A DNA stretch of 64,000 nucleotides from Octopus vulgaris (lineage: Eukaryota): contig OX597829.1 of NCBI GenBank assembly GCA_951406725.2, positions 41,106,001 through 41,170,000 on the forward strand. Reading direction: 5' to 3'. Positions within the stretch are counted from its first letter, which is position 1, and each line of letters starts with the position of its first letter. The notes beneath the pieces were generated by a model. The model saw only the letters and a list, made by a program, of their open reading frames with translations, did no database searches and had not been told where the DNA came from. Shown here piece by piece: positions 47,301-49,540 of the stretch. A program made the translations under genes and the position numbers.

Positions 47301-49540
47301 CTCCTGCCATTAAAGGCAAGAAGAAGAAGACCATTGTCAAATATACAATTGACTGCACACAGCCAGTTGAAGATGGCATTATGGATGTCAGCAAGTTTGT
47401 AAGTAAATTTCGATTTGGTTTGTCCTTTTCATATTTTGTTGCTTGGAGGAGAATGTCTTGTAGCCAGCATTCAAATGTAAACGTTGAAAACTTTGCTGTG
47501 ACCCTTCATTAACTGAAAGTGTGAAGCTTTGAGAGGGTGCTGTGATTGGTTGATGTATCGCCTGTCCAGTGTGTTAAGTAAGTAGATATTTTCAAGATAT
47601 TAATCACCATCATCGTTTAACGTCCGCTTTCCATGCTAGCATGGGTTGGACGGTTCAACTGGGGTCTGGCAAGCCTGAAGGCTGCACCAGGCCAGTCAGA
47701 TCTGGCAGTGTTTCTACAGCTGGATGCCCTTCCTAACGCAAACCACTCCGAGAGTGTAGTGGGTGATTTTATGTGCCAGGCGAGGCTGGCAGACGGCCAT
47801 GCTCGGATGGTGTTTTTATGTGCCACCGACACAGGTGCCAGACGAGGCTGGCGAACGGATGATGTTTGTTACGTGCCCACGTGTGGTTAATGCAAACTTT
47901 TGATGCTGTGATTAGCTATGTGGTCATACCTCATATATTGCTGGTTAAAGATCTTTAATTAAATGATACAGTCAACGACATATCTGCCATGCTTAGAAAA
48001 TCAAATTGAGGCTAGAAGAGATCCGAAGAAGTACATTGAATATGCAAATGCACTTTGTAGGAGTCTTGATGGGAGGTTCTTTTTAAATGAAGCTAAACTT
48101 TTTCATAGAAAGATGCTTACTTTGTGTTTCTTGGTCCGAAACATTTTATGTTCTAGACACTGGTTTCACTAGGAATATAGAGTCAGCGAGATAAACATAC
48201 AATGTCAGTAATGAGAACAGCTATTATAATTAAATCTTATGCTTACATTGTTTGTGAAGTTCTGTTGAAAATGTGATTTCAGATGTGCTGATGATATAGC
48301 TGTGGGTGCATTTTGTTTTAAGCTAACGTTTATGTTGATTTCTTGTCTAATGTGAAGGCGGCTTTTGTGCCGCCCTCTTGGATGTTAGGGTAACCTTCCC
48401 TAAGTTTCCATATTTCTCTTGCAGGAGGAGTTTTTGCATGCCCGAATTAAGATTAATGGGAAGACAAATAACTTTGACAATAATGTCTCATTGGAGAAGA
48501 CCAAGTCGAAGATTGTGCTAACGGCAGATATCCCCTTCTCAAAGAGGTATGTATTGTTGTTTTAATTTTACATTGTTTTTCCGTTTGAGCGGCAGTTTTT
48601 TCTAGCAGTGTCATATGAAGTTGTCACTGCATTTCAATCTGTTTTAGGGGGAGGGGATGTTTTTTTTCTTCACAAGTGTAAATAAACCCAATCTGTTTCT
48701 TAAATGAGGGACATATTCATACGGCACAGAATGTTTTCACCTCAATAAACGTCATTGATTGGTAGAAATTGAAGAAGAAAAAACGACAAATATCTTACAA
48801 ACTATAGAATTTTCTCAATAAAGCCTAGAGAAAAAGATGTTTTATAAACACATTCTACCAGTATACAAAGTTAAAAGTGTTTAGTTACGTGGAAATTATT
48901 TTGAAAAACTGCTGTTCTAACCGAAAAGATCCTGTTTTTCTTAACGTTTCAGCATTCAGATTAATTTATCAAACATGCTTGTTGATTTGCATTTTTTAAA
49001 GTTAGTGACAGCTTTGATACTTTTAATGTGATATTATTTGGAGATTAGTATTATGGGGTAGGTATGAGATGCTGGTTCTGGTCAGTTTCAACATAAGACC
49101 AAATATTCGTGCTGGGTGTGGTTTTATATAGATTTGTGCTGCAGAGGGGCATTTCTATTTCAAGTTCAGCTTTCTATGCAGAGGTGATTGTTGATCTAAA
49201 GAATGCTAACACTTAAGGCCTGGTTCATTTGAGATTTGTGACACTGCAGGTTGTGTTCCAATTTCATCATATGAAACCTTGCCAGCCTCAGGAAAGGGGC
49301 ATTTGAAGATGATGTTGTTTATAGAATTTTTTTCTTCCTTATCCTTTGAAGTTGCTGGTGTATAACTCTTTATATTTCTGCTTTATTGCTAGGTACTTGA
49401 AATATTTGGCCAAGAAATACCTGAAGAAGAATAGTCTTCGTGATTGGCTTCGAGTAGTTGCTGCCACTAAGGAATCTTATGAATTACGCTATTTCCATAT
49501 CAATAATGAGGAAGATGAAGATGATGAGGGTAATGAATAA
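44378..49540 (+). CDS. RPL22: 60S ribosomal protein L22 (eL22), 136 aa; join(44378..44386,47267..47398,48425..48546,49393..49540)
   Basis: Exons sum to 411 nt in frame: MPA|QHKPQK...[36 protein letters not shown]...[29 protein letters not shown]...[20 protein letters not shown]. This has the typical eL22 motifs and acidic tail. Confidence 0.96.
46470..46649. mobile_element. Small GC-rich MITE in RPL22 intron 1
   Basis: 35-bp TIRs GGTACTGCTTGAGAACAGTGGTCCCGGTGCGCGCA / TGCGCGCACCGGGACCACTATTCTCAAGTAGTACC; degenerate 9-bp TSD AATATATAG/AACATATAA. Confidence 0.8.
46659..47000 (+). mobile_element. Diverged SINE family A
   Basis: GGGTTCAGTCC head remnant; GACCGATAGAATAAGTACT core. Confidence 0.75.
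47267..47398 (+). CDS. RPL22: RPL22 exon 2
   Basis: TTTTCTTTCAG acceptor; [29 protein letters not shown] donor. Confidence 0.95.
47603..47880 (-). mobile_element. RTE 3'UTR-derived repeat in RPL22 intron 2
   Basis: Reverse complement of the 21545-21955 core. Confidence 0.85.
48425..48546 (+). CDS. RPL22: RPL22 exon 3
   Basis: [48 protein letters not shown]. Confidence 0.95.
48582..48932. mobile_element. M1 MITE in RPL22 intron 3 (left TIR eroded)
   Basis: Family body; flanking TGTTTTTC duplication. Confidence 0.85.
49393..49540 (+). CDS. RPL22: RPL22 exon 4
   Basis: [34 protein letters not shown]...*. Confidence 0.96.

Follow-up and report, generated by a model that had tools for sequence, protein, structure and literature searches.

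RPL22 and the 3′ end of its second intron

The window, by which we mean the whole 64-kb stretch of Octopus vulgaris DNA analyzed, contained the gene RPL22 for ribosomal protein eL22, and the parts of the gene and the hairpins described below lie on its + strand. The Pfam family PF01776 (Ribosomal_L22e) was matched by exons 2, 3, and 4, with exon 2 just below the cut-off, and exon 3 (48425–48546) showed 100% identity with a protein named from O. vulgaris/O. sinensis. Exon 2 (47267–47398) ended in phase 0, and the joint from 47398 to 48425 was found, with the other canonical joints, in three RNA-like sequencing runs; the intervening phase-0 GT-AG intron (47399–48424, 1026 nt) ended in a pyrimidine tract and the canonical acceptor CAG (48405–48424, the AG ending at 48424). 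The coding part of exon 4 (49393–49540), identified from Pfam, splice joints, and a match to the protein P0002, had an intact KKYLKK motif, to which the literature assigns RNA binding. A motif scan predicted the coding end of exon 1 at 44378–44386 (ATG CCA GCT, Met-Pro-Ala), followed by a GTAAG donor and matching the N-terminus of P0002. Because exon 1 is thus predicted to end at 44386, the intron at 47399–48424 is intron 2, and with this prediction for the intron number, the assignment of the locus to RPL22 intron 2 in a preliminary description made from the sequence letters was correct.

Four of the 24 runs were examined as contigs, which drop rare forms, and the RNA nature of the three RNA-like ones is a guess. 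Contig depth was 104–129 in intron 2 versus 11 in intron 3 in run X1, 29 versus 22 in X2, and 15 versus 10 in X10, a contrast that was not used as evidence because the parts of one gene cannot be ranked by the depth of contigs. In X10 (organism B), substitutions were found at 48053 and 48328, both outside the hairpins described below, together with a 14-nt gap placed by arithmetic near 48252–48265; the contig of X17 (organism D) had 12 differences, two of which were listed. Intron 1 contained a MITE-like repeat (46470–46649; inverted 51-nt arms, 86% complementary, 78 nt apart) that was high-copy in the runs, and intron 2 a high-copy interspersed repeat (47603–47858), which could pair in read-through RNA with its inverted copy downstream of the gene (50170–50298; 80 nt, 89%). 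A segment at 54436–54462 (..KIDSSISL stop behind an AG) may be an alternative last exon that, via a donor inside exon 4, would explain the longer RPL22 isoform P0001. The Rfam scan of the window gave no family at the hairpins, for which reason a reading of the element as an intronic snoRNA was dropped, and a single marginal match to tRNA (60126–60187, 29.1 bits), probably the head of a tRNA-derived SINE.

The 101-nt sequence at 48340–48440 folded into two hairpins at −34.1 kcal/mol (z = −3.46), and none of 200 shuffled sequences folded equally well or better. These hairpins, which dominated the fold, were the two marked in the preliminary description, whose coordinates for hairpins and acceptor were exact in a sequence check. 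Pair probabilities were 0.90–1.00 in the cores and 0.78–0.91 in an outer TGGA/TCCA extension (48379–48382/48407–48410). Perfect 6-bp hairpins were common (595 on the + strand of the 64-kb window); hairpin 1 (48357–48374, GGCGGC-TTTTGT-GCCGCC) was the only all-G/C one in the window. The motif of hairpin 2 (48385–48403, TTAGGG-TAACCTT-CCCTAA, with the extension 48379–48410) occurred once in the window.

The preliminary description had seen in hairpin 2 the geometry of an eL22 site, giving the site in stem-loop III of EBV EBER1 as GGG-UACAAGU-CCC. The published eL22 consensus is a stem closed by G-C with a U at the loop's 3′ end (10.1101/2023.12.29.573614). Hairpin 2 conformed to both rules, as its 7-nt loop UAACCUU (48391–48397) was closed by G48390 on the 5′ side and C48398 on the 3′ side with a pair probability of 1.00 and had U48397 at the 3′ end. 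Hairpin 1 was closed by C-G, so that the eL22 geometry held for hairpin 2 and not for hairpin 1. Hairpin 1 was ruled out as a second eL22 site by this wrong closing pair and by the lack of a match to the covariance model R1 described below, and its conservation was not found beyond close relatives. The octopus intron therefore contained one consensus hairpin and not two juxtaposed consensus stem-loops, in a range of one to three copies across lineages.

Conservation of hairpin 2 among RPL22-family loci

Metagenome contigs were scanned with a pattern consisting of an acceptor AG and the start of RPL22 exon 3, which had one match in the window. The scan yielded 106 loci, all translating as RPL22-family exon 3. 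After the octopus hairpin sequence had reappeared in many of these loci, the hairpin search pattern TAGGG-N4-8-T-CCCTA was defined, and the motif YUAGGG-(7 nt, ending UU)-CCCUAR was found in one to three copies in intron 2 of 54 loci, the remaining 52 being without it; counted by protein cluster with the window included, 17 of 26 carried the motif. Intron-2 ends, 19,996 nt in total, contained 93 pattern hits, whereas the other 571,753 nt contained five: two copies further up intron 2 of a springtail-like locus (L007), and three that were these same hairpins read in reverse complement. According to lineage labels based on similarity to named proteins, the carriers matched stony corals (93% to Stylophora), the tube worm Ridgeia (100%), heterodont clams (90–92%), tunicates (92–94%), an echinoderm (85%), and springtails (73–83% to Orchesella), and included the vertebrate RPL22L1-type loci L038, L053, and L076. 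The assignment of these three was made via published human RPL22L1 primers, with 2–4 mismatches per 20 nt versus 7 for L029 and L035. The L001-type loci (28), L064, L079, L081, and L083 were left without a close assignment. The motif was lacking in loci of insect-like and of mite-like type, in two loci of vertebrate RPL22 type whose intron was covered in full, and in four clusters that we take to be protists and that had no close named match.

The covariance model R1, built from 29 instances of the hairpin, detected in the window only 48378–48410, by construction, and, in a search of the window and 45 of the 106 loci, gave nothing with E < 0.2 in the motif-negative ones. The sequences suggest that the hairpin is likely absent from insect-like loci; we grade this as likely and not as proven because only 19 of the 52 motif-negative loci had the whole intron covered and because the motif of L007 sits more than 400 nt upstream. 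In an alignment and a primer comparison, octopus hairpin 2 shared sequence with the vertebrate RPL22L1 element, and the published human primer for RPL22L1b matched the motif itself, with 3 mismatches of 22 to L076 and 6 of 22 to the window hairpin. Judged by sequence, hairpin 2 is homologous to the switch element of RPL22L1 intron 2.

Pairing was examined in 35 instances from 19 representative loci, and since instances within a locus or lineage are related and not independent, the shuffle figures that follow are not probabilities. The five core pairs were invariant and had been used as the search pattern, and are therefore uninformative on pairing. The outer pair, which lay outside the search pattern, was U-A in 18 instances, C-G in 13, U-G in two, and unpaired in two; it was thus Watson-Crick in 31 of 35, compared with a shuffled mean of 17.3, and none of 10,000 shuffles was as high. 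The loop measured 7 nt in 29 of 35 instances, with U as its sixth (second-last) base in all 29, a consensus to which the octopus loop conforms, and the base after CCCUA was a purine in 35 of 35. Among the 29 seven-nt instances, 31 cells with two-sided changes were counted against 13.8 ± 4.3 in shuffles (0 of 500 as high), and slid controls were lower; the number of pairs with two-sided changes was not above that of shuffles (278 of 500). The check by conservation and covariation that the preliminary description had proposed thus came out in its favor, in that, across animals, the hairpin sits where it does in octopus, at the 3′ end of intron 2, and has a compensatory outer pair.

Three other arrangements were noted among the loci. 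At 430–530 nt upstream of the acceptor, the two distant copies of L007 (117–238), which have 6-nt loops, could serve a cassette exon or a distant acceptor, and only a degenerate copy lies near the acceptor. An arthropod-like locus without the strict motif (L066) had a GGG-loop-U-CCC hairpin in a long stem approximately 110 nt upstream of exon 3, possibly a diverged eL22 site. The L001-type sequences inspected had a third, non-consensus GGGA/UCCC hairpin approximately 55–35 nt upstream of exon 3, the closest to the acceptor, with a branch-point-like 3′ arm.

Stops, candidate acceptors, and candidate branch points at the hairpin

Three AGs (48357, 48388, and 48404) lie upstream of the canonical acceptor, and each leads to a premature stop. 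The AAG at 48355–48357 is a candidate alternative acceptor, 67 nt upstream of the canonical one, that would shift the frame and lead to a stop at 48391–48393. The TAG at 48386–48388, located in the 5′ arm of hairpin 2 and 36 nt upstream of the canonical acceptor, is a further candidate, from which the reading frame would be Gly-Asn-Leu-Pro-stop. The 3′ arm CCCTAAG (48398–48404) contains this in-frame stop TAA (48401–48403) and likely also the canonical branch point (A 22–23 nt upstream of the acceptor), paired in the stem. Via AAG 48357 or TAG 48388, the stops (at 48391 and 48401) lie 143–153 nt before the exon 3–4 junction. In 29 of the 35 instances, a transcript joined at the 5′-arm TAG would likewise read Gly-x-x-Pro-stop, with the stop as fifth codon at the end of the 3′ arm, and in one locus (L030), where C-G replaces U-A, the pairing, the acceptor (CAG), and the stop (TGA) were all kept.

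The use of this acceptor was visible in L076 (1–1008), an intronless, spliced copy of mammalian RPL22L1 type in which exon 2 was joined to a 67-nt extension right after the AG of the first hairpin. This junction placed the alternative acceptor of vertebrates within the hairpin's 5′ arm, at the position homologous to the octopus TAG, and its 67-nt offset is identical to that of the octopus AAG. The unproductive 67-nt isoform is preserved in L076, which may be a cDNA or the retrocopy of a transcript that is normally degraded. The first hairpin of octopus is a GC stem, unlike the first hairpin of other lineages.

According to the preliminary description, both plausible branch points lie inside hairpin 2. 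A48402 and A48403 were indeed in the stem, whereas A48393 was unpaired in the loop (P = 1.00), and better matches to the branch-point consensus were present upstream of both hairpins. These were GCTAAC (48322–48327, A48326), 32 nt before the candidate acceptor AAG, and the branch-point-like TCTAAT (48346–48351, A48350), 39 nt before the TAG of hairpin 2 or 21 nt with hairpin 1 looped out; their use in splicing is conjectural. Hairpin 1 is likely a spacer that hides the AAG and shortens the distance from branch point to TAG. A CTRAY motif was found 14–24 nt before the AG of the first hairpin in 9 of 18 lineages versus 5% in the background, or in 11 of 18 with two relaxed hairpins, in a range picked after inspection of the data; in octopus, no branch-point motif was found 14–24 nt before the hairpin TAG. 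Between the A in the 3′ arm of the last strict hairpin and the canonical acceptor there were 18–40 nt in 11 of 19 lineages, 43–84 nt in seven, and 428 nt in one. Masking of the branch point is therefore not universal, since 8 of 19 lineages have their last strict hairpin more than 40 nt away from the acceptor. The preliminary description had overlooked the branch points and alternative acceptors upstream, the stop that lies in frame within the 3′ arm, and the identity of the element with the vertebrate one.

A putative eL22-responsive switch and its relation to RPL22L1

Intron 2 of human RPL22L1 contains an alternative acceptor together with juxtaposed L22 stem-loops, and the non-coding form declines when L22 is depleted (10.1101/2023.12.29.573614). 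A CLIP peak of RPL22 over the splice site of this intron has been reported (10.1101/2024.08.15.608201), and RPL22 raises the use of RPL22L1 exon 3A, although the same study found no RPL22 CLIP peak on RPL22L1 (PMC12035866). Loss of RPL22 de-represses RPL22L1 and is recurrent in MSI-high cancers (PMC12035866), and in upf1-null zebrafish, NMD transcripts of rpl22l1 dominate (PMC7354994). The control of vertebrate RPL22L1 splicing by eL22, to which the preliminary description had appealed, thus agrees with the published human switch.

On these grounds, we consider it probable that hairpin 2 represents in octopus a conserved element of animals to which surplus eL22 would bind, blocking the exon 3 acceptor and diverting the transcript to a premature stop, with nonsense-mediated decay as the likely consequence. 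The position, sequence, and pairing of the hairpin are conserved from coral-like to vertebrate RPL22L1-like loci, and hairpin 2, by its sequence, fits the published stem-loop consensus. By analogy with human RPL22L1, free eL22 would bind hairpin 2, and clamping of the stem would hide the canonical branch point (A at −22/−23) that the 3′ arm probably holds. An upstream branch point would then be used with the TAG of the 5′ arm or with the AAG, either by a route from A48326 to AAG 48357, giving a 67-nt extension, or by one from A48350 to TAG 48388, for which the distance with hairpin 1 looped out falls inside the 14–21 nt of other lineages. Translation gives a stop for either acceptor, and under the 50-nt rule for nonsense-mediated decay such transcripts would be degraded. 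For octopus, we infer the binding of eL22 and the feedback, as well as the position of the branch point, the choice of acceptor, and the decay. Because the element lies in the gene of eL22 itself, the loop would be one of self-regulation and not of paralog cross-regulation, and the conservation favors and supports the autoregulatory reading of the preliminary description.

A different outcome, which we regard as unlikely, is that the same element binds eL22 but only stalls or retains intron 2, as in yeast RPL22B, with the upstream AGs unused and a stop at 47510 in the retained intron. Among the 15 of 115 joints listed, none ran from 47398 to 48358 or 48389, in contigs that miss rare forms and for a product that NMD would deplete. 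For the bin 48254–48435, three listed contigs accounted for the full depth in X1 and X10, and therefore no contig with an alternative joint was present there; in each of the three RNA-like runs, unspliced intron-2 contigs passed over both candidate AGs without a break. As octopus has only one consensus hairpin, its TAG acceptor would lie inside a paired, protein-bound stem, and two published observations point the same way: in yeast, Rpl22 halts splicing ahead of its first step (PMC13630204), and in human cells treated with WINi, the distal form fell while the proximal acceptor form was insensitive (10.1101/2023.07.26.550648). In other lineages, nevertheless, the branch point, the YAG, and the in-frame stop are conserved together, also in coral-like and tunicate-like loci with one hairpin, a sign that the acceptor is really used, and L076 shows that the TAG acceptor is used in a mammal.

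That the hairpins act by structure or through another protein, hiding stray AGs, bringing an upstream branch point near the acceptor, or binding a splicing factor without eL22 feedback, seems to us quite improbable, even though the best branch-point matches lie upstream and all three intervening AGs fall within stems or at their edges. For a spacer, no fixed sequence would be needed, but the stem core, the loop length, and the loop end were fixed across lineages; stem and loop match the eL22 consensus and, within the DNA examined, occurred only in the intron of the eL22 gene itself; and the presence of the element in RPL22L1-type and its absence from RPL22-type vertebrate loci correspond to the direction of the known regulation. 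The frequency of 6-bp hairpins in the window and the fact that conservation of hairpin 1 was found in close relatives at most would suit chance hairpins without function, but for hairpin 2 the position-specific conservation and the covariation refute this reading, to which we give hardly any credence. A diversion of the transcript by surplus eL22 binding to hairpin 2 thus remains the reading that we prefer.

As to the origin of the element, the odds appear even to us that the 19-nt hairpin, combining an eL22 sensor, a masked branch point, a poison acceptor, and an in-frame stop, has persisted in intron 2 of RPL22 from the cnidarian-bilaterian ancestor onward as an ancestral autoregulatory switch that was lost in insects and in vertebrate RPL22, the control of RPL22L1 by RPL22 being a post-duplication remnant. 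After the vertebrate duplication, the element would have been kept by RPL22L1 and lost by RPL22, so that self-regulation likely became cross-regulation, an order of events that we infer from four versus two loci and not from a tree. Short non-coding elements that are recognizable between corals, molluscs, and vertebrates are rare. One paper to be compared on this point (PMC10735318) has no occurrence of RPL22. The intron-2 switch of human RPL22L1 was known before as cross-regulation by RPL22; what is new is the depth of the element, which reaches from vertebrates down to corals, its likely beginning in self-regulation, and a design in which acceptor and stop are combined. The preliminary description knew of no account of the element in molluscs, and we found none outside vertebrates in the literature searched, a coverage that excluded figures, bioRxiv supplements, and most subscription journals; it does, however, have a close precedent in human RPL22L1 intron 2. 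If the proposal is true, the human RPL22-RPL22L1 link is an old self-limiting loop inherited by one paralog, and invertebrate RPL22 knockouts are predicted not to be buffered in the vertebrate way, whereas RPL22 overexpression should be. The cross-phylum alignment names the exact bases for mutation, and its consensus for natural eL22 targets, much tighter than the rule of G-C and U, could sharpen target searches.

The octopus element shares with the vertebrate RPL22L1 switch (exon 3A/RPL22L1b) its position at the 3′ end of phase-0 intron 2, after an exon 2 with ...DG(I)MD/FD...F, as well as the hairpin motif, an upstream candidate acceptor that would lead to a premature stop, and a candidate acceptor at the 67-nt offset. 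It differs in sitting in the invertebrate eL22 gene itself and in having one consensus hairpin and a non-consensus GC hairpin, where vertebrate RPL22L1 has two consensus hairpins, and its binding of eL22 and effect on splicing are putative. In the autoregulation of yeast RPL22A/B, eL22 binds the intron of its own gene and, as is proposed for octopus, inhibits productive splicing (PMC4838235; PMC13630204), but it does so through a larger intron structure (PMC13630204; PMC8047918), an alternative I/P structure that lies 5′ of the branch point and goes together with alternative 5′ splice sites. The descriptions consulted gave no sign of sequence homology between that structure and the short octopus hairpin. 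Other eL22 stem-loops (SELEX, EBER1, MDM4 intron 6, and zebrafish Rpl22l1 exon 2) share the closing pair with 5′ G-C and the 3′ U of the loop; the animal intron-2 element has a far stricter consensus, YUAGGG/CCCUAR around a 7-nt loop that ends in CUU, and also encodes an acceptor and a stop, and the zebrafish exon-2 hairpin, unlike it, acts on mRNA stability. The intronic element of RPL10a/uL1 (PMC4937301) is similar in that a ribosomal protein governs its own unproductive splicing with conservation across distant animals, and differs in the protein and in the use of an alternative donor, as opposed to the candidate alternative acceptor of octopus RPL22.
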